A stretch of DNA of 64,000 nucleotides from a virus (Duplodnaviria; Caudoviricetes): positions 1 to 64,000 of IMG/VR virus record IMGVR_UViG_3300035696_000004. One strand, 5' to 3'. Position numbers and translations under genes: made by a program. Of this stretch, positions 13,302-61,063 are shown piece after piece. The stretch's first letter is position 1; each line of letters opens with the position of its first letter. A model generated the notes under the pieces. It saw only the letters and a list, made by a program, of their open reading frames with translations, did no database searches and had not been told where the DNA came from.

Positions 13302-13335
13302 CATACAGGCCAGGGCAAACGCCCTGGCCTGTATG
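13302..13335. terminator. Bidirectional hairpin, CATA...TATG family
   Basis: Perfect 15-bp stem catacaggccagggc-aaac-gccctggcctgtatg between convergent genes. Confidence 0.75.
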
Positions 13336-13336
13336 C

Positions 13337-14425
13337 TCACCAATCAGCGGTGGAGTAAACCGAACTATTGCTTGACGATGTGGTTTGAGACCCGCTCGAC
13401 GCGACGGTCATCGGAAAGTCTGTCGCCAATTGATCTTCAACACTGGTCGTTTCGAATTTATCCGAATAAGCCAAATCCATCAACGTGGTATCGGAAGAAG
13501 CCTGTGCACCACTCACCACCAACGTTTTGAAATCATCGCTACCATCAGCAAACTTGGAAAAATCAACAGCCGTCTCCGACGTTCCGGAAGAAGATGTCAG
13601 TGTCGAGGACATCCAAGCGGAATCAACCGATGAATATGCAGCCGTAAGACTTGTAAATTCCGAACTGATCGTATTGTCCGTTGAATTATCCGATGCCGTG
13701 TAACTGCTCGAAAAGTCACTGATGATGGTCGGGTTAATGGCCAGGACACCACCCGTCCCTAATGCGTCGCCCATTTGAGCCAGGTTTGCTACATCCGATC
13801 CTGATATCGTGGTAGGTAACGATGCCTGAGCCACTTGGGAGATGGAACTGGTATCCGTCCCTAGAGCGCTGATCGAAGAGGAGAATGACCCCGTCACGCC
13901 CAGTGACGATAGGCTCGATGAAAGGCTCGTCGAGAGTGCGACTTTAGCAACAGCATCATTAATCGCCAGTACGCCAGCATTCCCACTGTACGCACTCAGT
14001 AACTTGCTCACCGAGCTCAAACTATCGAAGTTTGTTGCCTTCGCTTGCTGAACCGCTTTGCCAAGGCTGATTGCCAGCTTGCCATCGGTCGTGATCGAAC
14101 TGAAGAGACTCGATGCATCAGTGAGCCCAGCTTTGGATAACAAGCTGCTGGTGATACCTGAGATGGCCAGCAATCGATTTGTCCCTGTCAGATTTGACAG
14201 AGTCGATTTCAACTTCTTTGCATCTGCCAGCGCTGTTTCAGCCGCCTTCAAACCCGATACGAGACTTTTTGCACCCCGGAGCACATTGGTCAAACCAAAG
14301 TCATACGAGGTGCTGAAGTCTTTCACACTTGTGATGACAGCACTATTCGTCTGTTTATAGACGTCGGTTGCCTGTAAGGTCGCATCACCCGACGACTGCC
14401 AAATATTACTTGCCGTAGAGCCCAT
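13337..14425 (-). CDS. Ser/Thr-rich hypothetical protein, probably virion structural
   Basis: 362-aa ORF with GGAG RBS and strongly S/T/A-biased composition. Confidence 0.6.
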   Translation of the reverse strand: MGSTASNIWQSSGDATLQATDVYKQTNSAVITSVKDFSTSYDFGLTNVLRGAKSLVSGLKAAETALADAKKLKSTLSNLTGTNRLLAISGITSSLLSKAGLTDASSLFSSITTDGKLAISLGKAVQQAKATNFDSLSSVSKLLSAYSGNAGVLAINDAVAKVALSTSLSSSLSSLGVTGSFSSSISALGTDTSSISQVAQASLPTTISGSDVANLAQMGDALGTGGVLAINPTIISDFSSSYTASDNSTDNTISSEFTSLTAAYSSVDSAWMSSTLTSSSGTSETAVDFSKFADGSDDFKTLVVSGAQASSDTTLMDLAYSDKFETTSVEDQLATDFPMTVASSGSQTTSSSNSSVYSTADW

Positions 14426-14449
14426 TATTTTCTCCGAGAATGCAAAAAA

Positions 14450-14471
14450 AAGAGGAGTCTCCCCCTCTTTT
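14450..14471 (-). terminator. Rho-independent terminator candidate
   Basis: aaagagg...cctcttt stem with an A-run on the plus strand (U-tract on minus), just after the stop of 14485-15042. Confidence 0.5.
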
Positions 14472-14484
14472 CCTGCCGAGCGTC

Positions 14485-15042
14485 TTAGAGACGCTTCAGC
14501 AGATGCCCGTAATTGGGCGTGGCTGGGTGCCGGCCTGTTTTCAGCAGTTCCCGCACATGTTCAAAATACCCTGTCACTGTGGGTGACGATGCCGGCCGAA
14601 TGAAGAGACCGGACATGAGGTCCTCGGTCTCCTTGTTGGTCGTTTGGTAGATGTAGTAATGATCGAATGGCAACGTCGATTCCAACATCAGCCGACGCAT
14701 CTCGCTGTTCTGCGAGATCTTGTAGAAGTTCGCTTCTTCGACAATGGCGTCAAAGTCTTCCAGGAACGGACCCTTCGCGGCCTTGTTGGCCCAGCGCGCT
14801 TCCATGCCGCTCAGTTCGCGAATGCTGTTCGACGGATTGACCGAACGGATCCACGCCATGAACGCTTCCATGGAGTTGAACGGCCCGAAGAGCGGGTGGT
14901 TGAACGGCGCGTAGTACAAGCTGCTGAGCATGCGGCCGAGTTCGGTGCGGGCTCGCATGTCGATGTTGATGTGTTCGATCCCGTCCTTGAGGACGATCGG
15001 GTTGTCGGTTGTTTCGTGCGGCATTTCTTTTGTCACGCTCAT
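14485..15042 (-). CDS. NADAR/YbiA-like domain protein
   Basis: Start moved to ATG 15042 (AAGGA RBS). DGIEHINID...RTELGRMLSSLYYAPF..FGPFNSMEAF...KISQNSEMRRLMLES follows the NADAR pattern LSNF..PF..F.SVEH...KF.QN..LR..LL.T. Confidence 0.5.
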   Translation of the reverse strand: MSVTKEMPHETTDNPIVLKDGIEHINIDMRARTELGRMLSSLYYAPFNHPLFGPFNSMEAFMAWIRSVNPSNSIRELSGMEARWANKAAKGPFLEDFDAIVEEANFYKISQNSEMRRLMLESTLPFDHYYIYQTTNKETEDLMSGLFIRPASSPTVTGYFEHVRELLKTGRHPATPNYGHLLKRL

Positions 15043-16159: not shown

Positions 16160-16206
16160 CTCAGAAACCTTTCTTATGACTCGGTTACTACCTATTGTCA
16201 GATGGA

Positions 16207-16229
16207 TGATATATGTTTGAAAATATTTA
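16207..16229 (-). promoter_or_regulatory. Candidate early (vRNAP) promoter
   Basis: Minus strand reads AAATATTTTCAAACATATATCA, nearly identical to the motif at 54887-54908. Confidence 0.5.
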
Positions 16230-16665: not shown

Positions 16666-16705
16666 CACAGACCCCTGCACCCGAAACGGGTGCAGGGGCT
16701 ATGAC
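16666..16705. terminator. Hairpin, CATA...TATG family
   Basis: cccctgcacccg-aaa-cgggtgcagggg followed by ctatgac, between convergent genes. Confidence 0.7.
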
Positions 16706-21531: not shown

Positions 21532-22356
21532 ATGGATGCCGCATTTGTTCGTGCCCGGGATATCGCGGCACTCGAAGCTTTTCAATTTGGTGCTGTCAAT
21601 GTCAGCAGCTTGCTGGAACGTGTACTACCGACTCTGACGACCGGGATTGCTGGTTTCGTGGGGCGTTTCTCGGCTACCGATCACGGCGTCAAACTGAAAG
21701 CCAATCGTTACGAGTTTGTCAAAGAACTCACGACCCACAAGTACATGGATCTGGCACCTATCACTTCGTACGTGCCGGAAGGTCTCGACAAGACGTATCT
21801 CGAATACGGCGCTGTTCTCAAAGCGGCGGCTGACCACGCCTCTCATGTCGAGGAGTATCTCGCTGACGTATCGAGCTATCTCGGCGGCATCCTGAGCAAT
21901 CGAGATAACCGCATGGGCGGAAAGAGCAAGATCCCGAAATACATCGGGATCGAAAAAGAACGAAACGAACTCAATGAATCACTCGGGCATTGCTTCAAAA
22001 ACGGTTCGACTCGGGCAGAAGTCGCCTACAGCGAAGTGGTAGACCGCAACAACGACTGGCTCCATGTGTTCGATCTGGTAGACAGCATCTCCAGAATGAT
22101 GAACGCGGTGAATCGGAAGCGCCTGAATGATCGCGCAACGGATGCCGTGAACATGTTGACCAAGATCATGGAACTGCATAAGAAGGGTGAACTAGAAGGT
22201 CTCGCCCCCGAAGTCATCGGCGAGCTCTCCGAAGGCACCTTCCAAGCTGCTTGCGAGCTGGAGTTCTTTGCGATCGTGTACTATCGGTCCATGAACCTCG
22301 CGAGCTGCGTGGATAACACGGTCGATAACATCCGCCGCATCATTTCTCAAAAGTGA
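21532..22356 (+). CDS. Virion head protein (phiKZ gp153-like)
   Basis: 274 aa, AAGGA RBS, N-terminal protease-type site IAALEAF; divergent from uvsX as in phiKZ. Confidence 0.65.
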   Translation: MDAAFVRARDIAALEAFQFGAVNVSSLLERVLPTLTTGIAGFVGRFSATDHGVKLKANRYEFVKELTTHKYMDLAPITSYVPEGLDKTYLEYGAVLKAAADHASHVEEYLADVSSYLGGILSNRDNRMGGKSKIPKYIGIEKERNELNESLGHCFKNGSTRAEVAYSEVVDRNNDWLHVFDLVDSISRMMNAVNRKRLNDRATDAVNMLTKIMELHKKGELEGLAPEVIGELSEGTFQAACELEFFAIVYYRSMNLASCVDNTVDNIRRIISQK

Positions 22357-22359
22357 GAG

Positions 22360-22396
22360 CATACGACCCCGGGGCTTTCGCTCCGGGGTCTATGAC
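22360..22396. terminator. Hairpin, CATA...TATG family
   Basis: cata-c-gaccccggggc-tttc-gctccggggtc-tatgac between convergent genes. Confidence 0.7.
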
Positions 22397-22401
22397 GGCC
22401 A

Positions 22402-22854
22402 TTAGCCGAATATCTCACCCCTGTTCTGGATGAGGAGTCGCAGATCTTTTTCCAGATTGTTTCCGGCGTTGTCATCACCATACTGAAGCCAGGTAGGGAT
22501 CTTCAACTTGATCTTCTCGACGATACTCGACAGAATCATTTCGGAATCCGTCTCGTGCGTATTGAAGAGAATGGAAAGATCATTGATTACCTGATCATCC
22601 CAGATCACCTGACTGATGGTTGCTGAGAACTTCATCGCCTTTTCACGTCGGCACAAATTGAAAAGGGAATTCAACTTCTTCAGCGTTTCCGGATTGACTT
22701 CACAATACTTGGAATTGTTTGGCTTGCACATCCCGTAGCGCGCCACACCGGCAGAGAACGATGCCAGAAATAAGACGCGCTTGGTATGCAGCGGGAGCCG
22801 TGATTTAAGAAAGGACGCAAACCCGGATCGAACCGGGGCTGGAATCCGTGACAT
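22402..22854 (-). CDS. Hypothetical protein
   Basis: Start moved to ATG 22854 (AGGAG RBS). Confidence 0.55.
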   Translation of the reverse strand: MSRIPAPVRSGFASFLKSRLPLHTKRVLFLASFSAGVARYGMCKPNNSKYCEVNPETLKKLNSLFNLCRREKAMKFSATISQVIWDDQVINDLSILFNTHETDSEMILSSIVEKIKLKIPTWLQYGDDNAGNNLEKDLRLLIQNRGEIFG

Positions 22855-22899
22855 GGCGATACTCCTGCCGTGACATCCCGCCACGGCATTGCAAAGGCG

Positions 22900-24504
22900 T
22901 TAGATAAACCGCACGTTGCTGTGGTAACCGCACCAGATGCCGATATCGTCACCCGCCTCGATGATCGTCGCATAACGGAAAGCGAGTTCAGAGACTTCCC
23001 AACTCACAATCGTAACACGCGGGTTCAGAGGAGAGAGCCTGTTCAGTGCGTTTCGATCAGGCATGTCGATACCGAGGGTGAAGATCACATCAACTGCACC
23101 AGAACGTTCCCCTACTGCATAGTTTGTTTGTGTTTTGAGCGCAGCAAAGCCCACTTTGTATTCAGGCTTCAGATGCATTGAGAAAGATTCCTCGACCACC
23201 TCTACCTCAGCTTCATCCGCTGCGGCTTTCTTGGCTTTCGGCACTTTCTTCGGTTTTTGTGAAACCGACTCATACAAAACACTCGTGATGTCCGTACAAG
23301 TCAGGGTCGGATCACTCAGCTTGAAGCGTTGAAGAACCCCGCCCATTTCCGAAATCGCATCGATGGCTCGCATTGCGATGCCTTCCGGATTTTGTTCCTT
23401 CATCAGCGGTTCTTTATCGAGACACAAGAGCTCGATATTGCGCTGACCACGACGAATGAGAGAGGTCTCTCCGTACAGCTCAACATCTCGATAGACAGCC
23501 GGTGAGAACAGCTTGTCGAGCTTGACGAGCATGAGGCTGTCATTGTCTTTCGCCAGGTATTGCGCGTATTCGATCAGCTGCTCCATAATGGGTTGCGGCT
23601 TCGAGAGCTCGATGATTGAGAAGCTACCATCGGAAATGCGCGTACCCAGGTGATCGTCTTCTTTCCCGTGTTCTCCCAGGTAGTATTCGCCAGGCTTGCG
23701 TTCCGTATCCTGCGTCGTAAAGTACATGCGACGATTGTAGATGAAGGGATGTTTCTCGATCTCTGGTTTCCAGTACCCTTGGGCAGGGGAAGAATTCATC
23801 GTGTGGATCGGGGCACCGGACCAGCGAGGCTCGCGACGCAATGCTGATACAACAGTGCCTTGGGTGGCTGCTTTATCTGCCAGCACATTCCCAATGTTGA
23901 TGCCTTCACCCGGTTTCTTGTTCAGACCGTCCGTGTGGCTGCGTACCCAGGTGAAATTCACCGTGACGCCACGGGCACGGAGTTCTTCGGTCACCGCCAT
24001 CAGCTTTTCGAAGTGCTCACGGTTCGGAACGGGTGTGAAGCCATCCCGTTTCTTCCAGTTGTTCTTGACCCAGTTGCTGATCCACTGGTTCATGGACTGG
24101 ACCACGTAGTTGCTGTCCGTGTAAATCTGGATGAATTCGACGTCGTAATCCCGAGCGTACTCGAGCGCTTTGGTCGCCGCTACGATTTCAGCGACATTGT
24201 TGGTTTCATCACGAGTGAACCCGCCAGAACCATCCACGTAATGGATCGGAGTGACTTCATGAGCCGCCCGAACATTGCTGGTGACAAACTTCTCCCACAG
24301 CTCATCCGTGATAGGAACCATCGAACCCTTGAACGTTGCCTTATCGACATAACCAGCCGTCGTGATCAAGTACTTCGTGTTACCGCTGCCTTTCTTAGGG
24401 GCTTCGGCCGAGAACATGTAACCGTGAATACCCCAGCCAGCCGGACCGGGGTTGGTTGGAGCACTACCACCATCGCTATAAATGATAAAACCGTTGGACA
24501 TCAC
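22900..24504 (-). CDS. rnhA: RNase HI-domain protein (phiKZ gp155-like)
   Basis: IYSDGGSAPTNPGPAGWG, TNNVAE, IYTDSNYV, WVRSH, GNVLADKAA; extended C-terminal domain. Confidence 0.88.
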   Translation of the reverse strand: MMSNGFIIYSDGGSAPTNPGPAGWGIHGYMFSAEAPKKGSGNTKYLITTAGYVDKATFKGSMVPITDELWEKFVTSNVRAAHEVTPIHYVDGSGGFTRDETNNVAEIVAATKALEYARDYDVEFIQIYTDSNYVVQSMNQWISNWVKNNWKKRDGFTPVPNREHFEKLMAVTEELRARGVTVNFTWVRSHTDGLNKKPGEGINIGNVLADKAATQGTVVSALRREPRWSGAPIHTMNSSPAQGYWKPEIEKHPFIYNRRMYFTTQDTERKPGEYYLGEHGKEDDHLGTRISDGSFSIIELSKPQPIMEQLIEYAQYLAKDNDSLMLVKLDKLFSPAVYRDVELYGETSLIRRGQRNIELLCLDKEPLMKEQNPEGIAMRAIDAISEMGGVLQRFKLSDPTLTCTDITSVLYESVSQKPKKVPKAKKAAADEAEVEVVEESFSMHLKPEYKVGFAALKTQTNYAVGERSGAVDVIFTLGIDMPDRNALNRLSPLNPRVTIVSWEVSELAFRYATIIEAGDDIGIWCGYHSNVRFI

Positions 24505-24564
24505 TGACCCCTTGAATGATTGGTGCTACACAAACTATTGAGTCAGCCAATAAAAAGACACTCC

Positions 24565-24897
24565 TCATCGAATCTCGGTAAAGGGGTTCCAACCCGTTAC
24601 AGTACCTGTCGAGGGAGAAACGCTATACGTGCCTCCTGGCGGGACAGGGAAACAAACTGTCACGAGGGATCCAACCGCCGCAGATTGTGACGAGCTTTGC
24701 ATAGTGACCCCGTTAACGACCGCGATCAGATAAGCACCTGCAACAGACATATTGGCCGAAGCACTCACTGTAATTTGTCGAGGCGTGTTGTTTGGGTACG
24801 TCGTCCCAGGAACGCGAGTCGTGAGCGAGTAGTTTATCGGAGATTGTGCAACTTGAAGCATCGCCAGCGCGTAAGCTGATTGAGCAGCTTGTGTCAT
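24565..24897 (-). CDS. Small beta-rich protein resembling tail-fibre C-terminal domains
   Basis: 110 aa; TYPNNTPRQITVS...CFPVPPGGTYSV...W..FTEIR pattern; GGGG RBS. Confidence 0.45.
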   Translation of the reverse strand: MTQAAQSAYALAMLQVAQSPINYSLTTRVPGTTYPNNTPRQITVSASANMSVAGAYLIAVVNGVTMQSSSQSAAVGSLVTVCFPVPPGGTYSVSPSTGTVTGWNPFTEIR

Positions 24898-24912
24898 GAT
24901 ACGTTCCCCAAC

Positions 24913-25347
24913 TCATCGAGAAGGTTTTGTGAAATTCACGCACTTGATCAGGTATCGCTCCTTGGCATCTTGCTGAATCTTCTTGACGGTGGCGATATAC
25001 TGTCGCAATTCATCAATATGCTTCATCATGAGGTTATCGATACCGATCTGATCCGTATGGTTCAAACGCTTGAGCGCGTCGATAGGGAGCTCCGGTGTAG
25101 GAGGGAGCGCAGGAAACTCAAATCGAGGACACATGTCTTTGGTCAGAGAGGATTCCTTTACATACACTGGATGAACCACAATCTTTGGCGGAACCGGTGG
25201 CGGTAGCGAGGGCAGGGGTGGAGGTCTCAATGCAGGATCCCTCGCATCCAAGATAAAGGTGTCATGGTACGACACCTCCGTCTTATTGGTGGTAAAGTTA
25301 CCACACCCCAACAAGGTCAGGGAAATAAACATCACGTATTTTTTCAT
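24913..25347 (-). CDS. Lipoprotein, o-spanin-like
   Basis: Signal peptide II MKKYVMFISLTLLG-C, Pro-rich linker PPPLPSLPPPVPP, C-terminal helix; GAGG RBS. Confidence 0.6.
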   Translation of the reverse strand: MKKYVMFISLTLLGCGNFTTNKTEVSYHDTFILDARDPALRPPPLPSLPPPVPPKIVVHPVYVKESSLTKDMCPRFEFPALPPTPELPIDALKRLNHTDQIGIDNLMMKHIDELRQYIATVKKIQQDAKERYLIKCVNFTKPSR

Positions 25348-25358
25348 AGAGACCTCGC

Positions 25359-25727
25359 TTAGCGTGCACCCGAATGTTTCTCGGAGTCTCGCAGCTTCAA
25401 CATTTGATCTTCCACCGCATTGAAAGTGTTGTCCTGTGTCGGCGATTCAGCAACCGGAGCACTTTCTTGCTTCGGGTACACGACTGCCGGCGACTGGGAA
25501 ACGAGTTCAGGCTTGCAGACCTTGGCCAGATGTATCTGAGCGGATGAGATGCTCACCAGGCGAATAAACTGCCAGATATTCAAACCAAACGAACCCGTGA
25601 TCATGATGACCAGAAAGACCGCTTTCTTGTTGGAGTGAATGGCCTCCAAGAAGGTTTTCTTACCAATGACCATTTCCCAAAGGAAAGGCCAAAAGGTTTC
25701 GAGTATTTTCCAAATAAACCCCGTCAT
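25359..25727 (-). CDS. Membrane protein (i-spanin- or holin-like)
   Basis: Hydrophobic segment AVFLVIMITGSFGLNIWQFI; AAGGA RBS; directly upstream of the lipoprotein. Confidence 0.55.
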   Translation of the reverse strand: MTGFIWKILETFWPFLWEMVIGKKTFLEAIHSNKKAVFLVIMITGSFGLNIWQFIRLVSISSAQIHLAKVCKPELVSQSPAVVYPKQESAPVAESPTQDNTFNAVEDQMLKLRDSEKHSGAR

Positions 25728-25750
25728 TATTGCTTCCTTGCGTTCGACGC

Positions 25751-25762
25751 CAATTTTATGAT
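25751..25762 (+). promoter_or_regulatory. Candidate late promoter containing TATG
   Basis: CAATTTTATGAT, identical 12-mer to 61074-61085; both precede structural genes. Confidence 0.4.
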
Positions 25763-25842
25763 TGCCGTCATTCAGCTATTGTAATGCTGACGTGATTAAA
25801 CGTCAACATCTTTTATTGATCAAAACCTCCCGGGATAAAATC

Positions 25843-27150
25843 ATGTACGTATTAAAAGGTTTCGTGGCGAATGCGCTCTTTGCCAATAACAACCCCGGCA
25901 CAGTAGCCACCTTTGGCGAACTGTCGACCCAGTCGTCGACGTACACGAACTCCATGGGGGTTTATGTGGCGTCGGATGTGGCGAATCTGACACTCAATAC
26001 GTTTCTGAGCGCGACTGATGGCGTGACGACGGCGCTGGACGCTACGCTCAAAGAGCAGGTCCTGACGATCGCTCAATGGCTCTACACCAAGAGCATCAAT
26101 ACCGCAGGTCAATTGGATGCTGACGATCTTCTCACCCAATTGCTCACCGGGTTCTCGTCGGTTGCGTCGAGCTTTGCATCGGGCAGCATGGTGAACAACG
26201 GCACGTACTACATGCCGGAATGGATCAGTTTCACCTACAACGCTTTGAGCGGGAGCTTCATCAAGATCTGGTTCTGCGATGCCAGTTTCCAGACTCAGTA
26301 CGACGAGTACAACATCACGGTGGTCCCGCCATTCTCTGCACTGGATGCTGTATTCTTCGGCGGAGCCAGTGTGGTTAAAGCTGATGCCGCTGCTTCGACC
26401 TGGAAGACACAGACCGAAACGATCCAGACAGCTCGTAACGGAAATCCCGAGACCTCACTCGTCGGGATGACGTATGACTACGTGGATCCGACGGATTCCA
26501 CCAATTTGATCCCAACCAACTGGGCTACTTTGATTTACGGTACGGTCGGTGACAATATCGATTCGATCAAATCGGCTTTGCAGACATACATCCTGGCAAA
26601 TTCGACGCACACCCAATCTGAATGGACAGCGATCCTGCCGGATATCTTCAAGACGACGGAATTCATCTTGGTTCCTCGATACGACCAATACGCCATCGCT
26701 GACCGCGCAATCGAGGCCGGAGTTTACAGTCCGATCACGAACATAGCAGCTGGTATAGCCGAAATTGCGAAATACGCATTTCCGGCATCGACGTATCCGT
26801 CGGCTCATATTAATTCCTACGCCTGCGATATGGGACACCCGTACAAGTCGCTGAATATCCTGTCCATCGGTAGCAATCAGAACCAGAACAACCAGTACCA
26901 GCTGACACAATTGTTCGCTGATTTCATCGCTGTTTCGACGTCGTCCACCGACTTCAGTCGAATGAGCACGACCACCCAAGCATGGGCTGAACTCCTGTCC
27001 GAGCTTCTGATCGCGGCAGAAACGGCTACCGCGTACAGTTCGTTGCCGACTGGGATGACACGCTTGACGCGTAATGGGATTCTGTATGTGGTCGCCGATT
27101 ACAACAACATCCAGTACCTCGTCGTTGCCAAGAGCAACTTCAGTTCCTGA
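25843..27150 (+). CDS. Virion structural protein (phiKZ gp157-like)
   Basis: Start moved to ATG 25843 (MYVLKGF). TFGELS, MPEWI, KIWFCD, LPDIFKTTEFILVP motifs; synteny with the RNase H block. Confidence 0.65.
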   Translation: MYVLKGFVANALFANNNPGTVATFGELSTQSSTYTNSMGVYVASDVANLTLNTFLSATDGVTTALDATLKEQVLTIAQWLYTKSINTAGQLDADDLLTQLLTGFSSVASSFASGSMVNNGTYYMPEWISFTYNALSGSFIKIWFCDASFQTQYDEYNITVVPPFSALDAVFFGGASVVKADAAASTWKTQTETIQTARNGNPETSLVGMTYDYVDPTDSTNLIPTNWATLIYGTVGDNIDSIKSALQTYILANSTHTQSEWTAILPDIFKTTEFILVPRYDQYAIADRAIEAGVYSPITNIAAGIAEIAKYAFPASTYPSAHINSYACDMGHPYKSLNILSIGSNQNQNNQYQLTQLFADFIAVSTSSTDFSRMSTTTQAWAELLSELLIAAETATAYSSLPTGMTRLTRNGILYVVADYNNIQYLVVAKSNFSS

Positions 27151-27160
27151 GGAGTGACAT

Positions 27161-27817
27161 ATGGCAACCGCTATTGTCCCGAGTATCAATAGTTCCGGTA
27201 TCTTTACGTTGGCGGCGCCTTTTGAAGCGATGCTGACAGCCGGAATGAGTTATACCTGTCGTGCAGTGCGTACCATTGCTGACTTGGTGGCTGACGGAAA
27301 AGACCCGTACACGGATACTTACGTCGCGAATGGCTTGACACAAACACAATACAACACGGACGTGGCAAACGGCGTGTGCATTGTGAGTCTGGCTCCGACG
27401 TCAACCAGTGGGACGACAGTGTACGTGCCGAGCAGCTTCATTACGGCACTTCCGTCTTCGGGTGGTGTGAATTATCAGATTCTGGGTTTGTTGGTGAATA
27501 TGGGGGCGTTACCCGTTAGCACCGACTTGACGTATCTCAAAACTCAGATTTCCGAGATTGTTCAAAACACAATCGGATCGACCCCGACGTTGACGGCTGC
27601 CAAGTTGTCTGCTGTCAGCCTTCTATCATCGGCAGATGATGCCAAATACCAGGCGGCTCGCGCCCTACTGATCAGCAGTAGCCAGACAAACCTCGCTAAA
27701 GCATTAACGAATGAAGCAGCCTTGGCGAGTGCTACGCAGAAAATCACCGCTCTCGAAGCGTACATTGTTCAGTTGAATGCCGAGATCACGACGCTCAAGG
27801 CGTCGGGGAGTACTTAG
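27161..27817 (+). CDS. Virion structural protein with C-terminal coiled coil
   Basis: 218 aa, GAGGAG RBS; PSINSSGIFTLAAPF...YTCRAVRTIADL. Confidence 0.6.
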   Translation: MATAIVPSINSSGIFTLAAPFEAMLTAGMSYTCRAVRTIADLVADGKDPYTDTYVANGLTQTQYNTDVANGVCIVSLAPTSTSGTTVYVPSSFITALPSSGGVNYQILGLLVNMGALPVSTDLTYLKTQISEIVQNTIGSTPTLTAAKLSAVSLLSSADDAKYQAARALLISSSQTNLAKALTNEAALASATQKITALEAYIVQLNAEITTLKASGST

Positions 27818-27842
27818 CACTATAACTGAAAGAGAGCCGGAC

Positions 27843-27920
27843 ATGCAGACAGTAGGGTACAGTGTGGTAGTGGTATTGTATCTCGTGTGGGTTTGGATCT
27901 TGACACTACCACCTTTTTAA
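27843..27920 (+). CDS. Small hydrophobic peptide MQTVGYSVVVVLYLVWVWILTLPPF
   Basis: Hand-found 25-codon ORF filling the gap between the upstream gene and the hairpin; one TM helix; weak GAGAG RBS. Confidence 0.4.
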   Translation: MQTVGYSVVVVLYLVWVWILTLPPF

Positions 27921-27922
27921 CG

Positions 27923-27961
27923 GTCATAGCCCCAGGAGCTTTCGCTCCTGGGGTATATGTC
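27923..27961. terminator. Hairpin, CATA...TATG family
   Basis: gtcatag-ccccaggagc-tttc-gctcctgggg-tatatgt between convergent genes. Confidence 0.7.
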
Positions 27962-27966
27962 GCGAG

Positions 27967-28947
27967 CTACACGTTGGGCGCCACAATGGCTTCCTGAGAA
28001 ACGATTTGTTTCCCAGATACAGTGCCGTTTACGGCCGTCACATCTTGATCCGCCGTGAGGCTACCGGTGACTTCCATATCACCACCAAACTTCGCCTTAC
28101 CGGTCGACTTACCGTCACTACCCGCGGCTGTGGTCAAATCACCCGCTACGGCTACCGAACCATTATGCGTTGTTTCGGACGTGATCGTCGTCGTCGTCGA
28201 ATTGATCGTGCTGTCAGCCGTATCGAGTTCGTACGAGTCTGTCGCGCTCAGCGAAATCTTTTTACTATCGATTTCAAAACTATCGAGACCCGACATCTTG
28301 AATGCTGTCCCTGTCAAATCCATGACTGCACCATCAGGGTTTTCGACATGGAACTGGTTTTGACCGAAATCGTACTTCACTAGATTGCCGGTATTGTCAT
28401 CGACAGTGAGCGTCCCAGCTTTTGTGTTCAATGAAATATCGAAAGCAAACGGCTCGCTATTTGCTTTCGAGGTGTGGATCGTGATCGCCCCTGTGAGCGG
28501 ACTAAACGTACAGGTGTAGTGGTTGTCATTACTCGCGTCGACATCTTCCTCAGCGGTGCCGCTGTACCCCATGACCACATGCTCGAGTTTACGTGTCGAG
28601 CTGTCGTTCGACATGGTAGACCAATAGAATTGATCCGTATCCGCAAACCGCCAAATCTCGACCTGTTCACCACGCCGGACATCGGGCGACGTCTTTCGAT
28701 TGCTTTCCCCGACAGGCCGCCATTTACATGGAATCGTGGCAGCTGTTTGCGATTTCGTCGTATAGGCACTTCCGGTACCATCGACGCCCGAGGACTCCAG
28801 GGCGGTTGTGTTGGGTGTCAATTCGCCATCCAGCATGGCATGCTTCTCAAGCGGCGTGACTTCGACGACATCCGTGTTAGCGGCTTTGTTTTCGGCCACG
28901 ACACCGTGCGAATAAAAGTGCCAGTCCGAAACAGTGCGTTGCGTCAT
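27967..28947 (-). CDS. Baseplate central spike (gpV/gp5-like; phiKZ gp164-like)
   Basis: GVVAENK, SPDVRRGEQVEIWRFADTDQFYW OB-fold-type N-terminus, then short repeating beta-strand segments; AGGAG RBS. Confidence 0.65.
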   Translation of the reverse strand: MTQRTVSDWHFYSHGVVAENKAANTDVVEVTPLEKHAMLDGELTPNTTALESSGVDGTGSAYTTKSQTAATIPCKWRPVGESNRKTSPDVRRGEQVEIWRFADTDQFYWSTMSNDSSTRKLEHVVMGYSGTAEEDVDASNDNHYTCTFSPLTGAITIHTSKANSEPFAFDISLNTKAGTLTVDDNTGNLVKYDFGQNQFHVENPDGAVMDLTGTAFKMSGLDSFEIDSKKISLSATDSYELDTADSTINSTTTTITSETTHNGSVAVAGDLTTAAGSDGKSTGKAKFGGDMEVTGSLTADQDVTAVNGTVSGKQIVSQEAIVAPNV

Positions 28948-29013
28948 GAAAAACTCCTGTTAAAAAAGATACGCGCGCCCTATCATCTGACAACGGATAA
29001 CAGGGCTTCAGAT

Positions 29014-31497: not shown

Positions 31498-31509
31498 AGG
31501 AATACGAAC

Positions 31510-34026: not shown

Positions 34027-34041
34027 GGTCTGCTGATGCAA

Positions 34042-34077
34042 TCATAGAGCCCGGGGCGTTTGCCCCGGGCTCTATGA
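34042..34077. terminator. Hairpin, CATA...TATG family
   Basis: Perfect 16-bp stem tcatagagcccggggc-gttt-gccccgggctctatga between convergent genes. Confidence 0.78.
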
Positions 34078-34079
34078 CA

Positions 34080-35315: not shown

Positions 35316-35340
35316 AGCGATCCCCGTAAAAATTGACTTG

Positions 35341-35353
35341 AAATACTATGGTT
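35341..35353 (+). promoter_or_regulatory. Candidate late promoter containing TATG
   Basis: AAATACTATGGTT about 70 nt upstream of the tail-fibre ATG. Confidence 0.4.
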
Positions 35354-37821: not shown

Positions 37822-37858
37822 TCATAGAGGGCAGCCACGGAAACGTGGCTGTTTTATC
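37822..37858 (+). terminator. Hairpin between the tail-fibre genes
   Basis: cagccacg-gaaa-cgtggctg followed by ttttat; left flank tcatagaggg. Confidence 0.5.
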
Positions 37859-38888: not shown

Positions 38889-38907
38889 TAATCAAAGGAG
38901 GTAGTGC

Positions 38908-39441: not shown

Positions 39442-39442
39442 C

Positions 39443-39482
39443 GGCATAAGCCCTCTCCCGTTTGGGAGAGGGCGTCTATGAC
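39443..39482. terminator. Hairpin, CATA...TATG family
   Basis: ggcataa-gccctctccc-gttt-gggagagggc-gtctatgac between convergent genes. Confidence 0.72.
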
Positions 39483-39484
39483 CG

Positions 39485-40105: not shown

Positions 40106-40116
40106 AGTGGCGTCTT

Positions 40117-40581: not shown

Positions 40582-40591
40582 GTTGATCTCC

Positions 40592-40909: not shown

Positions 40910-40923
40910 GAGAAACCCCTTGC

Positions 40924-41382: not shown

Positions 41383-41960
41383 CGTTCTTCTCCAATCTGT
41401 TTATAAAGACCGTATGCCACCGCAATGGCATCGATAGAGTGTTCATCTAGCGTGTCCAGCGTATTGGCTGAACTCTCGTATTTCAAATCAGGTAATGCTA
41501 AGACCGCTTCACGAACAGCGTCTTTCTTTGCACTGGACCCTGCTTGGACAGCGAGCTTGACACAGGAGGGGGGCAACAAATGGAGTTGACACCACGAACT
41601 GTACCGCGTGACAGCCTGACGAATAAACGTCATGGTCGTCATCAGCGTCCCGTATGCATACGGTCGCAAGGAATTAAAGAAAGGGGATTCTGTCGCAACG
41701 TAGTCCGGTTGAACATCATTCAGAAGAGAAACCAACTCATCCGAAATCGCAGAGACTCTGGAATACATCTCGCCATGCTGTTCAGCCAACCATAAATCCC
41801 GACCTGGTAATCGTTCGCCGACCAAGGTCCTGGCTTCGGTACTGATGATCTCACCTGTTCGATTACTGAAGACGAGCTTAGCAATACCGAATGTGTTCGT
41901 GCCAGGATCGAGACCGACGATGCAGACCCGGTCACGGAAGTGGGACCGCATCGTCAGCAT
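41322..41960 (-). CDS. ruvC: RuvC-like Holliday junction resolvase
   Basis: IVGLDPGTNTFG, VATESPF, VKLAV, DEHSIDAIAVAY catalytic motifs. Confidence 0.85.
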   Translation of the reverse strand: MLTMRSHFRDRVCIVGLDPGTNTFGIAKLVFSNRTGEIISTEARTLVGERLPGRDLWLAEQHGEMYSRVSAISDELVSLLNDVQPDYVATESPFFNSLRPYAYGTLMTTMTFIRQAVTRYSSWCQLHLLPPSCVKLAVQAGSSAKKDAVREAVLALPDLKYESSANTLDTLDEHSIDAIAVAYGLYKQIGEERCLFQGSLRPTKPKSKRGRG

Positions 41961-41969
41961 AGAGATCCT

Positions 41970-42827
41970 TTACGACGTCGTGGTCGTATTGGAGATGTTC
42001 AGCAAGGGTTCACTTGCTCCGACATCCAGGATCAGTTCCAGACCCGTCGAAGCGTAGACGAGCGGGTACATGCAGTTAACGAACTCAATCACTTGCGCAG
42101 CGATGAGCTCATTGAAGTTGAACGTACTGGCACCACTACCCGATGCGCTGATGGTTTTGTCCACACCGGAGATCAGACCGATCTCCGAAATGATCGCGTA
42201 GTTGGTGTCACCATAGATGACATTGGCGGCATTCAGGAGTTCGGTAATGTCAAAGGCATCCAACGACAGATCCAGTTGACTCGTTACCTTGGCGAGCTGA
42301 CCCGTCGCCACGTTGACACCCGTGGCAGACAACTGCTTGGCGGTCGGGGACAGATTGGTGCTGTCCGGGGCGAATACGACATCCGTCGCTGTACCGTCCG
42401 ATGCTACCGTTTCGATCTGGATGACCGGTGCGATACTGGACGAATCCTGACGTTTCGCATAGTACGCTGCGTAAGCGATTCCGTTCCACTCTTCGATCCG
42501 GCGCAGAGCGTAGTTGGCTTGTTGAGCTGTGGTCAGATCGTTCGTCAGTTCACGAAGAACAAACGGGAGATGATGGAAACAGCACGGGTCGGTCGCTTCA
42601 TGTTGCAGCGGGGTGCTGATCGGAATGTTGTTGGTACCGACCGTGGTGGTATGGCCACCATTGCCGATGACCCAGCCTTTGAACTCCGGAACCGACGCCG
42701 GAACCACGCCGCCTTCGATAGCGAACTTTTCATTCAGGGTCGTGTAGGGAGTCAGTTGAAACGACCCGCCCAGGAGTTCAAGCGATTGCAGGTACGAACC
42801 GTATACGGTACGAGTGAGGTTTTGCAT
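41970..42827 (-). CDS. Virion structural protein (phiKZ gp127-like)
   Basis: LTRTVYGSYLQ, TTLNEKF, IGNGGH, PFVLR, AAYYAKR, IISEIGLISGVD. Confidence 0.65.
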   Translation of the reverse strand: MQNLTRTVYGSYLQSLELLGGSFQLTPYTTLNEKFAIEGGVVPASVPEFKGWVIGNGGHTTTVGTNNIPISTPLQHEATDPCCFHHLPFVLRELTNDLTTAQQANYALRRIEEWNGIAYAAYYAKRQDSSSIAPVIQIETVASDGTATDVVFAPDSTNLSPTAKQLSATGVNVATGQLAKVTSQLDLSLDAFDITELLNAANVIYGDTNYAIISEIGLISGVDKTISASGSGASTFNFNELIAAQVIEFVNCMYPLVYASTGLELILDVGASEPLLNISNTTTTS

Positions 42828-48164: not shown

Positions 48165-48199
48165 CATAGACCCCCGGAGCATTGCTCCGGGGGTCTATG
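48165..48199. terminator. Hairpin, CATA...TATG family
   Basis: Perfect 16-bp stem catagacccccggagc-att-gctccgggggtctatg; A10 run at 48145-48154. Confidence 0.78.
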
Positions 48200-51853: not shown

Positions 51854-53458
51854 TTAGATACGACGGATAACTTCTTCTACTTCAAGAAGCAAGTCGATAA
51901 ACTCCGGGTTCTTTTGAACCAACCCGCTAGGGGCAACACGGAGGTGTCGATTGATGCGACTGTGACCGCTAGGCTCACTCTTCGGGATATTCAAATACCC
52001 GCCGACTTCAGCGATCGAGGAATGCAATCGCTTAGACGGATCCGACAAGGCAGCGGTATCATTCTTGCCGCCGGTGGACGAGCTATTTGCCTGAGGCACC
52101 ATCAACGCCGTCATCTTGAATGCTTTGTTGTCTCCCGATGTGGTCGTGGTCGATACTTCACCATGACCTTCACGGATAGCAAACACCGCCCCCATTTTGA
52201 TGTACGTCGTCATCAATTGCTCAATCTCTTTACGCGTGATCGTCTTTCCAGATCGAACCAACGTGCCGAGACGGAAGTAGAAGTTATTGATTTGGTTCAT
52301 CAGTTCCACAAAGACATAATACAGGATACTCAATTCCTTATCATACAGGCTATTGATCTTATCCTTGGAACTGTTGCACCAGTCATTGATACGCTCAATG
52401 ACAATCATGAAGAACTCGTACAGATCGTTGACCGGTAGATTGATCTCCTTGAATTTCTTCTTCATGACTTCGTCGACATACTCATCGAGAGATCCGATGT
52501 GGACGCAGACGTCATCATGAATTTTACCGATGTTAACATTGCCCGAATACAGAATGCGACCCAGGAAGGTTCTCCACATGCGCGGTGTGTCGATTTCATT
52601 GACATCCATTTCATGGGAGAAGTGCTCAGCGATATAGAAGAAACCGCCGACCATGCTCTTCATCGTGAGGGTGAACTTATCCCTCGGAATGACAAGAGCG
52701 ACCTTGCTCGGGAACGAGAACTTGTTGTTGAGGAGCTTGGGACGACTGGAACAAATGACCCAGTCTTCCTTAGGATACTTCTCGCGAGATACAGTATCCA
52801 CCATCTCCACAATCGGTACAGCACCCGCTGTCCTGAGAAAGGCTTCCGAGAACCCGAACTTGCAGAACAGGTAATGCGCCAACGTGGTGTTGCATTTCAC
52901 GGCTGGCTTGATCTCGAGCTTCTGAGGGTTCTTGTTGTAGACCAGTGACCACGGAACTTTGACGCTGTCGATGCAATCATCGACGATCAATTGATGGTCC
53001 AGTCGTTCAATCGTGATCCGTGCACGAATCAGACGAACGAATACACTATCCAGTCCCGGGCTCAATACCCGATCCGCCAAGATAGGGCTGATGACAAACC
53101 GACTACCGCTGATATGGAGAATACCCGCTTCTCCTACAAACGGCAGCTTGATGTACCGAACAATCTCTTCGCCCTTGAAATCGAAGATGTACTTCATCAT
53201 GTAGAAGTCTGTTCGGGCCATGTCGAATACCCGGACATTGCTACGTTTCCGGGTTTCTTCATTGAACTCCTCTTGTGCATCGCACCGCTCACACCGAACA
53301 TATTTCAGTTCAGGTGGAAAGCCTTTCGCCACCGCTCGCCAGACCGAGTTGATGTACGATTCGGATAACTCCATATGCGCAACAGCCAAGCCGTTGGCAA
53401 TGAGAGGATTCAGCTGTGGCGTATCGCCAATAGCAATCTCACTAATAAAATCATCCAT
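51854..53458 (-). CDS. Non-virion RNA polymerase beta subunit, N-terminal part (phiKZ gp123-like)
   Basis: TPQLNPLIANGLA, YIKLPFVGEAGILHISGSRFVISPILAD, LHSSIAEVGGYLNIPKSEPSGHSRIN; synteny near MCP. Confidence 0.85.
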   Translation of the reverse strand: MDDFISEIAIGDTPQLNPLIANGLAVAHMELSESYINSVWRAVAKGFPPELKYVRCERCDAQEEFNEETRKRSNVRVFDMARTDFYMMKYIFDFKGEEIVRYIKLPFVGEAGILHISGSRFVISPILADRVLSPGLDSVFVRLIRARITIERLDHQLIVDDCIDSVKVPWSLVYNKNPQKLEIKPAVKCNTTLAHYLFCKFGFSEAFLRTAGAVPIVEMVDTVSREKYPKEDWVICSSRPKLLNNKFSFPSKVALVIPRDKFTLTMKSMVGGFFYIAEHFSHEMDVNEIDTPRMWRTFLGRILYSGNVNIGKIHDDVCVHIGSLDEYVDEVMKKKFKEINLPVNDLYEFFMIVIERINDWCNSSKDKINSLYDKELSILYYVFVELMNQINNFYFRLGTLVRSGKTITRKEIEQLMTTYIKMGAVFAIREGHGEVSTTTTSGDNKAFKMTALMVPQANSSSTGGKNDTAALSDPSKRLHSSIAEVGGYLNIPKSEPSGHSRINRHLRVAPSGLVQKNPEFIDLLLEVEEVIRRI

Positions 53459-54886: not shown

Positions 54887-54908
54887 GTAATATATGTTTG
54901 AAATATTC
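54887..54908 (-). promoter_or_regulatory. Candidate early (vRNAP) promoter with TATATTAC
   Basis: Minus strand GAATATTTCAAACATATATTAC contains the phiKZ early-promoter core TATATTAC; upstream of the gp122/gp123-like operon. Confidence 0.6.
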
Positions 54909-54914: not shown

Positions 54915-54966
54915 GCGGCATAAGGGCATAAATCCCTCTCTCCACTCGAAAGAGTGGAGAGAGGGA
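54915..54966 (-). terminator. Major capsid gene terminator hairpin
   Basis: Perfect 15-bp stem tccctctctccactc-gaaa-gagtggagagaggga; on the minus strand followed by TTTATGCCCTTATGCCG. Confidence 0.75.
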
Positions 54967-57912: not shown

Positions 57913-58112
57913 CGGGTGGTTACCTCAAATAGTAGAAATATTTTTTATCTACCACTGCCATTATGTATGAACCGAGCTAAAATCGCATACCTTCCGATAC
58001 CCTGGCACTGGACCGTGTTGTCATAGTAATATTGCCTAGGGATCCCTTCTATAGAGTGGTTTGATACCTCAATCAAACTCAAGATCAACGCACCTCTTCG
58101 ACGACAATAAAA

Positions 58113-59669: not shown

Positions 59670-59676
59670 AGCAGCC

Positions 59677-59712
59677 GGCAGGGACGGGCATTCCGTCCCT
59701 GCCCCCTATGAC
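59677..59712 (+). terminator. Hairpin, TATG family
   Basis: ggcagggacgg-gcatt-ccgtccctgcc followed by ccctatgac after the dnaB stop. Confidence 0.65.
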
Positions 59713-59726
59713 ACGGAGAATAAAAA

Positions 59727-61010
59727 ATGGTACAATTTTGCGATACGAACATGATTCCACCCAACCCGAAAATAGCCGTTGTTCTGTTGGGCGTTCGGAA
59801 ACTCAATATCTGGGACGCAGTATTACGACCGAAGCTCATCGAGGACATCAGGATTCTCTTTGAAGAAAAGGTGGTCATAGTTTCTGGATTAACACCCGGA
59901 GGTATTGAACCCGATTCGGATGCGGCGATCGTAAAACCGAAGGTGGTCGTCGGTTTCAGCAAAGACTACAGCCCAGTGGAGACGATCCAGTGGATGGAAT
60001 CGATGAAAGACGGTCTCCGATACGACATCTTGTTCATTGAAACGAATGATACGTATTCGGACGTCGGTCGAGTATGGTTTTGTTCGGACATTAGTTTCCA
60101 AAGCGTATCAACAATACCTGAGTTCGAGAAGCCAGCAAGAACCCTGAAGTTCAGTTCTAACAACCTGAGTAAGGCGCCGCCTCGTAAGTTTGTTGAAACA
60201 CTTCTGCGTAAGTTCAAAAACAAACAGTCTGGCGAAAAAGAGACCGAAGATTCGATCGGTATTCCCGGTATCCCGTATCACATCGATGAAGGTCATGTAT
60301 TTGGTCCGGTTCGGTCCATCATGAAGTTTGTCGACATCATGGACGCGATCAAACTCACTTCCCGCGATATCTCCATCAGAGCCACTCCAACCGAGGCGCC
60401 TCCGGCTGAAGTTAGTGCCGCTGTCAGAAAAATCAAAATGGATTTTGAAGACACGGTCAAAAATGCACCGTATGTTCCTTCCCAACTGAACGTCTTGGTT
60501 CTGGATGTACATGAACCGGTAGGAGAGGGTGACAGAGATCTTGAGGAACACGAGAACTTCAAGCAAGCATTCAAAGCCGTGGTTGAAACGCAAGCGATCA
60601 AGATTACGGGGTTCAATACGCATTACGAACCCAGTCCGGGGAACCCCGAATATCTTGACAATATGGCGGAACCTTCGTTTACGTTCTGCGAATCCTTCGG
60701 AAAGCCCATTACGCGCATGACAACGCGGATGGCAAACTTCTCCAAAGACCTCTCGTACGACATGATCATCTTTGAACTGGACGTCACAAAGACGATCGTC
60801 CAAGACGCTTGGTTGTGTCGTGGGATGACGCTCAGGAAAGTGGATGGGTTCACCGCTGAACGTGATCTGGAACGTGGTGTTTCGAAAGGCAACAAAACAC
60901 CGTGGGTGCGCATTACATTCAAACCCGTCAGGACCGAACGAGGAGAGTACGCTAACGACGTGGCCCAAAAAGAATTCAATGCGCAGATCACGGAGAAAGC
61001 ACCGGATTAG
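59727..61010 (+). CDS. Hypothetical protein with two tandem tail-tube-like domains
   Basis: 427 aa, GGAG RBS. Internal repeat YDILFIETND...RVWFCSDI / YDMIIFELDV...DAWLCRGM resembles phiKZ-family tail tube motifs. Confidence 0.5.
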   Translation: MVQFCDTNMIPPNPKIAVVLLGVRKLNIWDAVLRPKLIEDIRILFEEKVVIVSGLTPGGIEPDSDAAIVKPKVVVGFSKDYSPVETIQWMESMKDGLRYDILFIETNDTYSDVGRVWFCSDISFQSVSTIPEFEKPARTLKFSSNNLSKAPPRKFVETLLRKFKNKQSGEKETEDSIGIPGIPYHIDEGHVFGPVRSIMKFVDIMDAIKLTSRDISIRATPTEAPPAEVSAAVRKIKMDFEDTVKNAPYVPSQLNVLVLDVHEPVGEGDRDLEEHENFKQAFKAVVETQAIKITGFNTHYEPSPGNPEYLDNMAEPSFTFCESFGKPITRMTTRMANFSKDLSYDMIIFELDVTKTIVQDAWLCRGMTLRKVDGFTAERDLERGVSKGNKTPWVRITFKPVRTERGEYANDVAQKEFNAQITEKAPD

Positions 61011-61030
61011 ATCTCAAGATCTTTTTTAAG

Positions 61031-61063
61031 AAAGAGGGCGCCTTCGGGCCCCTCTTTTTATGC
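61031..61063 (+). terminator. Terminator hairpin with U-tract and TATG
   Basis: aaagaggg...ttcg...ccctcttt followed by ttatgc. Confidence 0.65.

Follow-up and report, generated by a model that had tools for sequence, protein, structure and literature searches.

TATG-tailed intergenic hairpins as very probable transcription terminators of an uncultivated phiKZ-like jumbo phage

In the jumbo phage phiKZ, 61 terminators have been located at ONT-cappable-seq 3' ends, where they share a common stem-loop followed by YTTATKYYGT and were described as intrinsic terminators of the canonical kind that contain a TTAT region (Putzeys 2024, PMC10914365); ONT 3' ends in phiKZ do not separate termination from processing. 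The similar motif A (n=59) occurs in 201phi2-1, eight of whose terminators are active in vivo (Poppeliers 2024, PMC11512511), and AR9/PBS1, another jumbo phage with two multisubunit RNAPs, shows strong termination at predicted hairpins (Lavysh 2017, PMC5312081). A separate body of work concerns the phiKZ nvRNAP, whose late promoter core is TATG with transcription starting at the G: a pocket in the beta-lobe of gp123 binds non-template 5'-TATG-3', initiation uses UpG at -1/+1, and TATG alone is insufficient for initiation (Yakunina 2015, PMC4666361; PMC12809450). The puzzle is that the tail of the terminators bears the same TATG as this phage RNA polymerase start signal.

Here we describe a family of such hairpins in an uncultivated phiKZ-like jumbo phage from peat (219.8 kb, 51% GC), to which the window, the stretch of 64,000 nucleotides that we analysed, belongs. 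We propose that the hairpins and their T-Y-TATG-M-Y-S-Y tail very probably serve as terminators, ending what the multisubunit RNAPs of this phiKZ-like jumbo phage (Chimalliviridae-type, nucleus-forming) transcribe. The major capsid gene matches the Pfam family PhiKZ_MCP at 3e-182, and BLAST detects a homologue of gp123, the beta-like subunit of nvRNAP (27% identity, E 6e-76), which together mark the genome as phiKZ-like and equipped with such polymerases; a divergent DnaB is also encoded. FLC9 is the nearest named relative, with 52.7% identity in the major capsid protein (MCP). Searching viral contigs with the capsid protein found no close relatives of the locus, and a search of 5.8 billion proteins returned no match above 55% identity. 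The stretch is carried by four peat metagenome runs, all of them DNA runs, and contigs from the four over 22300-42299 are identical to the window wherever they cover it, with zero variants. Scanning the window for Rfam families and tRNAs gave no matches. Gene contexts (co-directional or convergent) come from our own rough ORF calls.

The eleven sites that a sequence-only reading of this DNA had picked out all lie where that reading placed them or a few bases away (Table 1), and all fold as RNA, with MFE values of -19.9 to -35.2 kcal/mol and z-scores of -2.7 to -8.6 against dinucleotide shuffles. As had been noticed, the stems differ in sequence between sites and the flanks are the part held in common; the pairing of the stems persists. 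Convergent stop codons lie 40-50 nt apart with the gap filled by the hairpin, and at six of the seven convergent junctions, as the reading had counted, both sides carry the signal, a left-hand CATA and a right-hand TATG (13302, 22360, 27925, 34043, 39445 and 48165); the seventh, at 16672 (16666 in the earlier reading), indeed has CACA as its left flank and a tail on the plus side only. Its account of the co-directional junctions was likewise borne out: TATG follows the stem after dnaB (59707) and at 61059 and 61080, and is doubled on the minus strand after the capsid gene. The exception it named, at 37822/37832, carries UUUUAUC (no G) on the plus strand; a TATG tail exists only in the antisense direction, where the CATAG to the left provides it. 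The minus-strand U-runs that it reported at 13302 and 48165 are found 7-11 nt beyond the motif. TATG as a start codon or as a stop/start overlap is ruled out by its position at convergent junctions and after hairpins.

Table 1. Hairpin sites in the window, with the gp123 homologue given as context for the mechanism (outside the repeat set).
Feature	Coordinates	Strand	MFE (kcal/mol), z	Details
GC hairpin after 2208-aa gene	11173..11196	+	-24.6, -5.1	neither TATG nor U-tract
Bidirectional terminator hairpin, convergent	13302..13335	.	-33.4, -8.3	15-bp palindromic arms including CATA (13302-13305) and TATG (13332-13335); between stops 13286 (+) and 13337 (-)
Canonical-looking U-tract terminator	14448..14471	-		stem, then UUUUUUUUGC
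12-bp GC hairpin 16672-16698, convergent junction	16672..16703	+	-29.8, -7.5	tail CTATG (TATG 16700-16703)
Bidirectional terminator hairpin, convergent	22360..22394	.	-27.1, -4.5	CATA 22360-22363, TATG 22391-22394; one G-U/A-C position in stem
Hairpin 27930-27953	27925..27959	.	-27.1, -5.8	CATAG (27925) left, TATATG right (TATG 27956-27959); probably a convergent junction with minus ORF 27967-28947
Bidirectional terminator, 16-bp perfect palindrome	34042..34077	.	-35.2, -8.6	includes CATAG/CTATG (CATA 34043, TATG 34073); between stops 34026 (+) and 34080 (-)
Variant site, 8-bp hairpin 37832-37851	37823..37858	+	-21.1, -6.1	CATAG at 37823
Bidirectional terminator, hairpin 39450-39473	39445..39480	.	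-30.3, -6.5	CATAA 1 nt before stem, GTCTATG after
Bidirectional terminator, 16-bp palindrome	48165..48199	.	-33.9, -7.3	includes CATAG/CTATG; on minus strand closes block containing nvRNAP gp123 homologue
phiKZ gp123 homologue, nvRNAP beta-like subunit	51854..53458	-
Terminator after major capsid gene, 15-bp hairpin 54933-54966	54919..54966	-	-32.3, -6.3	doubled tail TTTATGCCCTTATGCC (plus-strand CATA at 54927 and 54919)
Terminator after DnaB-like helicase gene, 11-bp hairpin 59677-59703	59677..59710	+	-24.7, -4.4	tail CCCTATG (TATG 59707-59710), 17 nt upstream of next start codon
phiKZ-like terminator, UUCG loop	61028..61083	+	-19.9, -2.7	tail TTTTTATGCTTG (TATG at 61059), then second TTTTATGA at 61080

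Two further hairpins complete the table: the site at 14448 shows that terminators with a U-tract occur beside those with TATG in this genome, and the hairpin at 11173 is either a tail-less member or unrelated.

Across the whole genome the placement of the signal is non-random. A scan with a minimum stem of 8 bp and dG <= -12 yielded 53 intergenic hairpins (106 flanks). Among the 60 terminator-oriented flanks, 33 have TATG at the 3' foot vs a null of 2.2% (p ~1e-38); it also stands there on 15 of the 46 other intergenic flanks and on 2 of 32 flanks of genic hairpins. About 45% of the terminator-oriented hairpins carry CTATT/TTATT, a U-tract or nothing in place of TATG. Where present, TATG begins 1-3 nt past the stem or within it, and a PWM of 50 tails reads T-Y-TATG-M-Y-S-Y, with information extending past TATG itself. 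The elements thus have the anatomy of phiKZ-type terminators, namely a stable GC-rich stem-loop with the tail 3' of the stem, downstream of genes and bidirectional between convergent ones.

The claim that most sites have no adjacent U-tract is largely right: the 8 nt after the stem contain a mean of 3.1 T, with three or fewer in 36 of 60 flanks and five or more in 8 of 60. Exceptions are 61031 and 37832, which have UUUU(U)AU tails, and a few canonical U-tract terminators (14448 minus, and 181105 outside the window). Canonical Rho-independent terminators resemble our sites in their stable GC hairpin past a stop codon and in the U-runs at 14448 minus, 61031 and 181105, but the U-rich stretch of ~7-9 nt directly after the hairpin is not a genome-wide feature here; at most sites its place is taken by a TATG that is position-specific and keeps its G. 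In this 51% GC DNA, the feature that is kept is TATG rather than U-richness.

The tail might nonetheless be a degenerate U-tract, or a generic elemental pause site (consensus Y(-1)G(+1), after a G-rich stem arm) for any multisubunit RNAP, its match to the promoter core being coincidental, and we consider this a real possibility, albeit short of probable. It agrees with the published view of the phiKZ elements as intrinsic terminators of canonical type (PMC10914365), with the activity of 201phi2-1 terminators with host RNAP (PMC11512511) and with the T-rich tails of phiKZ, whose 8 post-stem nucleotides hold a mean of 4.5 T vs 3.1 here. It does not readily accommodate the 21 of 33 TATG tails in our phage that have three or fewer T in 8 nt, nor the base after TAT, which is G in 32 of 38 cases (84%) and T in only 3 (p = 6e-14), nor the information at tail positions +4 to +9, where RP12, FLC9 and phiKZ show much the same preferences.

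The tail is conserved across the family. Our scan of phiKZ recovered it on 8 of 15 flanks as TTTATGYYGT, and it is found in RP12 (8/9), in FLC9 (4/6) and more weakly in RSL2 (6/14); TATG tails were found on 0 of 4 flanks in the unrelated jumbo phage RSL1, 1 of 10 in lambda and 1 of 20 in AR9. With phiKZ and motif A of 201phi2-1 the likeness is close: a GC-rich stem-loop leads straight into (Y)TTATG and an extension of the Y-Y-G-Y type, the elements stand after genes and are bidirectional at convergent pairs, and the phage has its own RNAPs. The regulatory arrangement behind the capsid gene is likewise similar, a terminator being followed by an AT-rich ...TATATTAC element. The differences are that the tails here are U-poorer, often CTATGAC or CTATGCC with fewer leading T's, that phiKZ stems are of a fixed CCYCCCC/GGGRRGG type and ours are not, and that many of ours form long perfect palindromes, with CATAG paired to CTATG; the phage is also distant, its MCP being at most 55% identical to any known. 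AR9, in contrast, has plain U/A-rich tails and the late promoter AACA-N6-T(A/G). The element itself is therefore not new, having been published in 2024 for phiKZ and 201phi2-1; given the match to the mapped phiKZ stop signal, our finding is largely ordinary, but it is a well-supported instance.

From homology to the mapped 3' ends of phiKZ and 201phi2-1, we infer that transcripts of this phage end at the hairpins. In the mechanism that we envisage, a GC-rich RNA hairpin and a short conserved tail would together end the transcripts of the phage RNAPs, and at convergent pairs a single palindromic hairpin with a tail on both strands would stop both transcripts. The polymerase would slow as its active site reached the U|G of TATG, and the hairpin would then release the transcript from the weak U-A-U hybrid, two steps that we put forward by deduction.

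The strand correlation that the sequence-only reading proposed proved weaker than stated there. Comparing oriented with non-oriented flanks gives Fisher p = 0.03, and at co-directional junctions a curated count, which depends on our gene calls, gives ~10 sense-only, 3 antisense-only and 6 two-sided sites (binomial p = 0.09). Many co-directional sites are two-sided and probably also halt antisense read-through. A strand-specific RNA signature appears in the loops, where UNCG/GNRA tetraloops at co-directional hairpins are sense-only in 12 cases and antisense-only in 3 (p = 0.035), and seven loops are UUCG; this preference for the transcribed strand indicates a role at the RNA level. It weighs, together with the one-sided tails, against the notion that these are DNA-level palindromic sites (for protein binding, recombination or replication) or mobile REP-like repeats, which the perfect 15-18-bp palindromes at several sites and the recurrence of CATAGAGCCCG at 34042, 195573 and 197782 might suggest. 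The stem sequences vary freely between sites while pairing is kept, and only the flanks are common to them, which is not the pattern of the sequence-conserved palindromic units of REP/BIME elements; the sites are also placed strictly after stop codons. In addition, the tails are often unequally spaced from the stem on the two strands (39450, 136573), so that they are two tails and not one palindrome, and at 39445 the stem plus YTATG is accordingly separate for each strand. A DNA-level role is thus highly improbable.

An RNA processing or stability element, produced by nuclease trimming that halts at a protective hairpin or by a cut at the UAUG box, would also leave ONT 3' ends at these positions, which are ambiguous in just this respect, and UNCG loops and very stable stems are well suited to blocking an exonuclease. 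We consider it unlikely: trimming leaves the conserved tail 3' of the hairpin unexplained, and the 201phi2-1 elements lower downstream expression in terminator-trap assays, as termination would (PMC11512511). Part of the sequence-only interpretation is supported, namely that these are stop or 3'-end signals for a phage that uses RNAPs of its own and that the tail is sequence-specific; the phiKZ-like genome, the match to the phiKZ motif and the G after TAT speak for it.

The same interpretation took TATG to be what nvRNAP recognises as the core of phiKZ late promoters, which is correct (PMC4666361, PMC12809450). The terminator tail carries the identical four bases on the non-template strand, although here TATG follows a hairpin, has its own downstream preference (M-Y-S-Y..A) and at many sites, being convergent, faces no downstream gene. 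A rival reading is a composite terminator-promoter, in which nvRNAP re-initiates at the G of the tail TATG for the next gene, and the site at 59707, whose G lies 17 nt upstream of a start codon with GGAG between, and the doubled tails after the capsid gene and at 61059/61080 would suit this idea. We judge it improbable: the best-formed motifs occupy both strands of convergent junctions, so that initiation there would yield nothing but antisense RNA; six or more terminators on the minus strand, one of them inside the window and five outside, have a separate, dedicated promoter-like motif 17-43 nt further on; and TATG by itself does not suffice for nvRNAP (PMC4666361).

A refinement compatible with the terminators is that the nvRNAP beta-lobe pocket that binds the promoter core also reads the tail TATG on the non-template strand, and that an elongating polymerase then pauses just past the hairpin, U being in position -1 and G in position +1. 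TATG would then be used twice by the phage family, its second use being past the hairpin, where it would arrest the elongating enzyme at U|G in place of a U-tract. We entertain both the pocket reading of the tail and this dual use as possible but rather doubtful. Besides the binding and UpG initiation known for gp123 (PMC4666361, PMC12809450), the gp123 homologue here has four of seven pocket residues aligned as identical (S144, N186, S334 and Q466), a pairwise BLAST result too crude for much weight, with the other three not so aligned. A P119L-like ATATT-RC-TATG element lies at the orthologous divergent region (~58013-58036, minus) and is, by sequence, likely the orthologue of promoter P119L. 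In the phages of 51-56% GC, the tails shed U's yet keep TATG; such tails in this phage, FLC9 and RP12, and the near absence of TATG tails in AR9 with its different promoter, fit the dual use without proving it, the AR9 contrast being confounded by phylogeny and 27% GC. Against it, the argument is inferential throughout, and 201phi2-1 terminators of the same family stop host RNAP in uninfected cells (PMC11512511), so that termination can do without a phage pocket, at any rate in the U-richer versions. TATG-tailed hairpins also close units that begin with an early-like, presumably vRNAP, promoter motif, such as the one ending at 48165 on the minus strand. None of the papers that we consulted ties the tail to TATG recognition.

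For the terminators themselves, several points may serve the study of related phages: (i) the hairpin-plus-YTATG rule annotates operon ends and the direction of transcription in uncultivated phiKZ-like phages; (ii) the terminator design is common to lineages with capsid proteins only ~30-55% identical; (iii) members with higher GC split two properties that are confounded in the AT-rich phiKZ, in that U-richness decays while TATG and its G stay, which makes sequence reading of the tail by a phage polymerase testable with purified phiKZ nvRNAP and 3'-end maps; and (iv) dual use, if true, would make a single short signal on the non-template strand govern both initiation and termination, which would be unusual.

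Within genes, the motif is avoided on the sense strand, where TATG ranks 3 (o/e 0.62) and CATA 1 (o/e 0.52) for under-representation among 256 words, with synonymous-shuffle z-scores of -13.6 and -8.7, respectively. Since CATA is also low in lambda (0.73) and other TA-containing words are depleted too, this avoidance is weak evidence. Both words are depleted in the genes of phiKZ, FLC9 and RSL2 as well, and to a lesser degree in those of RP12.

On sequence grounds, the hairpins are this phage's set of phiKZ-type terminators, a published element type, as indicated by their match to the motifs of phiKZ and 201phi2-1, by the presence of the same tails in relatives and by a similar layout after the capsid gene. 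The 3' ends of phiKZ transcripts were mapped by ONT-cappable-seq, which gave 61 terminators composed of a stem-loop and then a TTAT region with the consensus end YTTATKYYGT, the conserved ones including six bidirectional terminators between convergent genes (Putzeys et al. 2024; PMC10914365). Motif A of 201phi2-1, with 59 terminators, is closely similar (Poppeliers et al. 2024; PMC11512511). When other phage DNA was run through our own hairpin and tail scan, TATG was present in 8/15 hairpin flanks in phiKZ (38% GC; TTTATGYYGT, often two-sided), 8/9 in RP12 (53% GC; TTATGCCGY), 4/6 in FLC9 (56.5% GC; CTATGCC or TATGACG) and 6/14 in RSL2 (52% GC; a weaker tail). The unrelated jumbo phage RSL1 (58% GC; 0/4 flanks) and lambda (1/10) had no tail, and AR9 (27% GC; 1/20) had a plain U/A-rich one. 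After the capsid gene, this phage and phiKZ both have a terminator followed by an AT-rich element with TATATTAC at its end. The sequence-only reading had proposed a terminator, pause or RNA-processing signal for the phage polymerases, and its terminator part is supported by the motif match.

The window is the first 64 kb of a record of 219,772 bp, which has 51% GC and a terminal repeat of 127 bp. The window carries genes for a major capsid protein of the phiKZ type (Pfam PhiKZ_MCP, 3e-182), for a divergent DnaB helicase and for a gp123 homologue; in phiKZ, gp123 is the beta-like subunit of the non-virion RNA polymerase (nvRNAP). Among named phages, Burkholderia phage FLC9 is closest (capsid 52.7% identical), with Ralstonia RP12/RP31 next, and no capsid match in a collection of 5.8 billion proteins exceeds 55% identity. 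Given the capsid and gp123 homology, the low identity to known phages and the origin of the DNA in peat metagenomes, this is an uncultivated jumbo phage, a distant member of the phiKZ-like group. Over window 22300-42299, contigs of four runs on peat metagenomes (2019-2020, four study codes) agree with the sequence, with no variant listed where covered; one phage strain recurs across those samples.

All hairpins listed in the sequence-only reading were found, with folding energies of -19.9 to -35.2 kcal/mol (z -2.7 to -8.6 against dinucleotide shuffles). At seven convergent junctions the hairpin occupies the gap between both stop codons, and CATA on the left with TATG on the right was confirmed at six, the hairpin at 16672 carrying CACA on the left. 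The co-directional cases had also been read correctly (the site that follows dnaB, the one at 61031 and the doubled minus-strand tail past the capsid gene), and so had the distal U-runs (13302 and 48165) and the exceptional site at 37832. A 326-aa ORF (window 27967-28947, minus) is overlapped by an SbcC-like ORF listed at 28474-31497 (plus, GTG at 28474); the PHROG match of the latter begins only at residue 171, so its true start probably lies near 28980, which probably places the 27930 hairpin at a convergent junction.

Across the whole genome, hairpins of at least 8 bp and a dG of -12 or lower were called blind to what flanks them, and flanks were classed by whether a same-strand gene ends just upstream. 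TATG occurs in 33 of 60 such terminator-oriented flanks (p ~1e-38 against the 2.2% of random 18-nt windows), 15 of 46 other intergenic flanks and 2 of 32 flanks of hairpins inside genes. The 50 tails aligned on TATG give the consensus T-Y-TATG-M-Y-S-Y, plus an A six bases past the G; TATG starts 1-3 nt past the stem or lies within it, where CATAG pairs with CTATG, and G follows TAT in 32 of the 38 tails having TAT. Tails contain few U's (on average 3.1 T per 8 nt past the stem; three or fewer in 36/60), and CTATT or TTATT, a real U-tract or no tail at all is seen at a minority of hairpins. In genes read on their sense strand, CATA (observed/expected 0.52) and TATG (0.62) rank first and third of 256 in under-representation, with synonymous-shuffle z of -8.7 and -13.6, and the density of both is 2-4 times higher in intergenic DNA. 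This genic depletion is common to phiKZ, FLC9 and RSL2 and weak in RP12; it constitutes weak evidence because the controls are mixed, RSL1 being without depletion and lambda having CATA at 0.73.

The premise that TATG is the core of nvRNAP late promoters was sound, as nvRNAP depends on TATG and initiates at the G with UpG at -1/+1 (PMC4666361). Upstream of the gp119 homologue, the divergent region contains ATATT-AC-TATG; phiKZ late promoter P119L (TGCTATATTGC-TATG-TAGACAG) has ATATT-GC-TATG at the orthologous place. This likeness suggests that the phiKZ promoter code is also used in this phage. Another TATG follows 36 nt further down. A 21-nt motif, AATATTTCAAAC(A/C)TATATTAC, has 17 copies at up to five mismatches, all on the minus strand; 15 are intergenic, and in all but one a minus-strand gene lies 13-241 nt downstream. 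It is probably the early (virion RNA polymerase) promoter, an identification that leans on what we take to be the phiKZ early consensus. Its second basis is the published wording 'AT-rich consensus element' (PMC8244752). The reverse complement of the motif is the source of several hairpin-less plus-strand TATGs. One tail-less hairpin between a copy of this motif and the start of the next minus-strand gene is a 5'-leader structure or attenuator, not a terminator.

Positions of individual genes, promoter-like elements and hairpins
Feature	Position	Strand	Remarks
phiKZ gp123 homologue (nvRNAP beta-like subunit)	window 51854-53458	minus	27% identity, E 6e-76
Late-promoter-like GGCAATATTAC-TATG-ACAACACGG	window 58013-58036	minus	divergent region, DnaB gene / gp119 homologue
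21-nt motif copies	window 54887-54907, 16206-16226	minus	15 more at genome 69100-212240
15-bp GC hairpin without tail	genome 74294-74326 (outside window)		between promoter-like motif 74348-74368 (minus) and minus-gene start 74262
C(UUCG)G tetraloops, transcribed strand	genome 77939, 104880, 126740, 143576, 188641, 214784	minus
C(UUCG)G tetraloop, transcribed strand	window 61031	plus

By homology, RNA probably ends at these hairpins. From the promoter properties of nvRNAP, we infer that an elongating nvRNAP could be held on reaching the TATG register just past the hairpin and would then release the transcript from a weak U-A-U hybrid. In favour of this, the 51-56% GC phages that were compared keep TATG and its G while U's are lost, and TATG tails are missing from AR9, which has AACA-N6-T(A/G) as its late promoter; in the literature searched, no paper linked terminator tails to TATG recognition by nvRNAP. 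Against it, the AR9 contrast is confounded by phylogeny and base composition, transcription in uninfected Pseudomonas chlororaphis is stopped by eight 201phi2-1 terminators, which therefore act on host RNA polymerase too (PMC11512511), and units headed by the early-like promoter motif likewise end in TATG-tailed hairpins. We regard the nvRNAP reading as rather doubtful, and a generic weak-hybrid or elemental-pause tail as possible, if short of probable. The testable idea that TATG may be both start and stop signal is worth keeping. Re-initiation at the tail, to which the sequence-only reading had thought termination might be coupled, is improbable as the main role, since the best motifs have no gene to face, at least six minus-strand terminators have a separate copy of the 21-nt motif 17-43 nt on, and TATG alone is insufficient for initiation. 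Less likely still are a role in processing only and one at the DNA level.

The rule that TATG follows the stem on the transcribed strand held genome-wide only in part: about 10 co-directional junctions are sense-only, 3 antisense-only and 6 two-sided (p = 0.09, after curation of contexts), and oriented and non-oriented flanks differ in TATG (p = 0.03), counts that depend on our own ORF calls. At two-sided sites the two tails are often not equally far from the stem (39450 in the window, 136573 in the genome), which argues for two independent stem-plus-tail signals rather than merely a longer palindrome. Of the co-directional hairpins with a loop of 4 nt, 12 have a UNCG or GNRA tetraloop when read as sense only, 3 when read as antisense only and 9 in neither reading (p = 0.035), a sense-strand bias that supports an RNA-level role. 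UUCG occurs seven times; among the other terminator loops are UACG, UCCG and GCGA.
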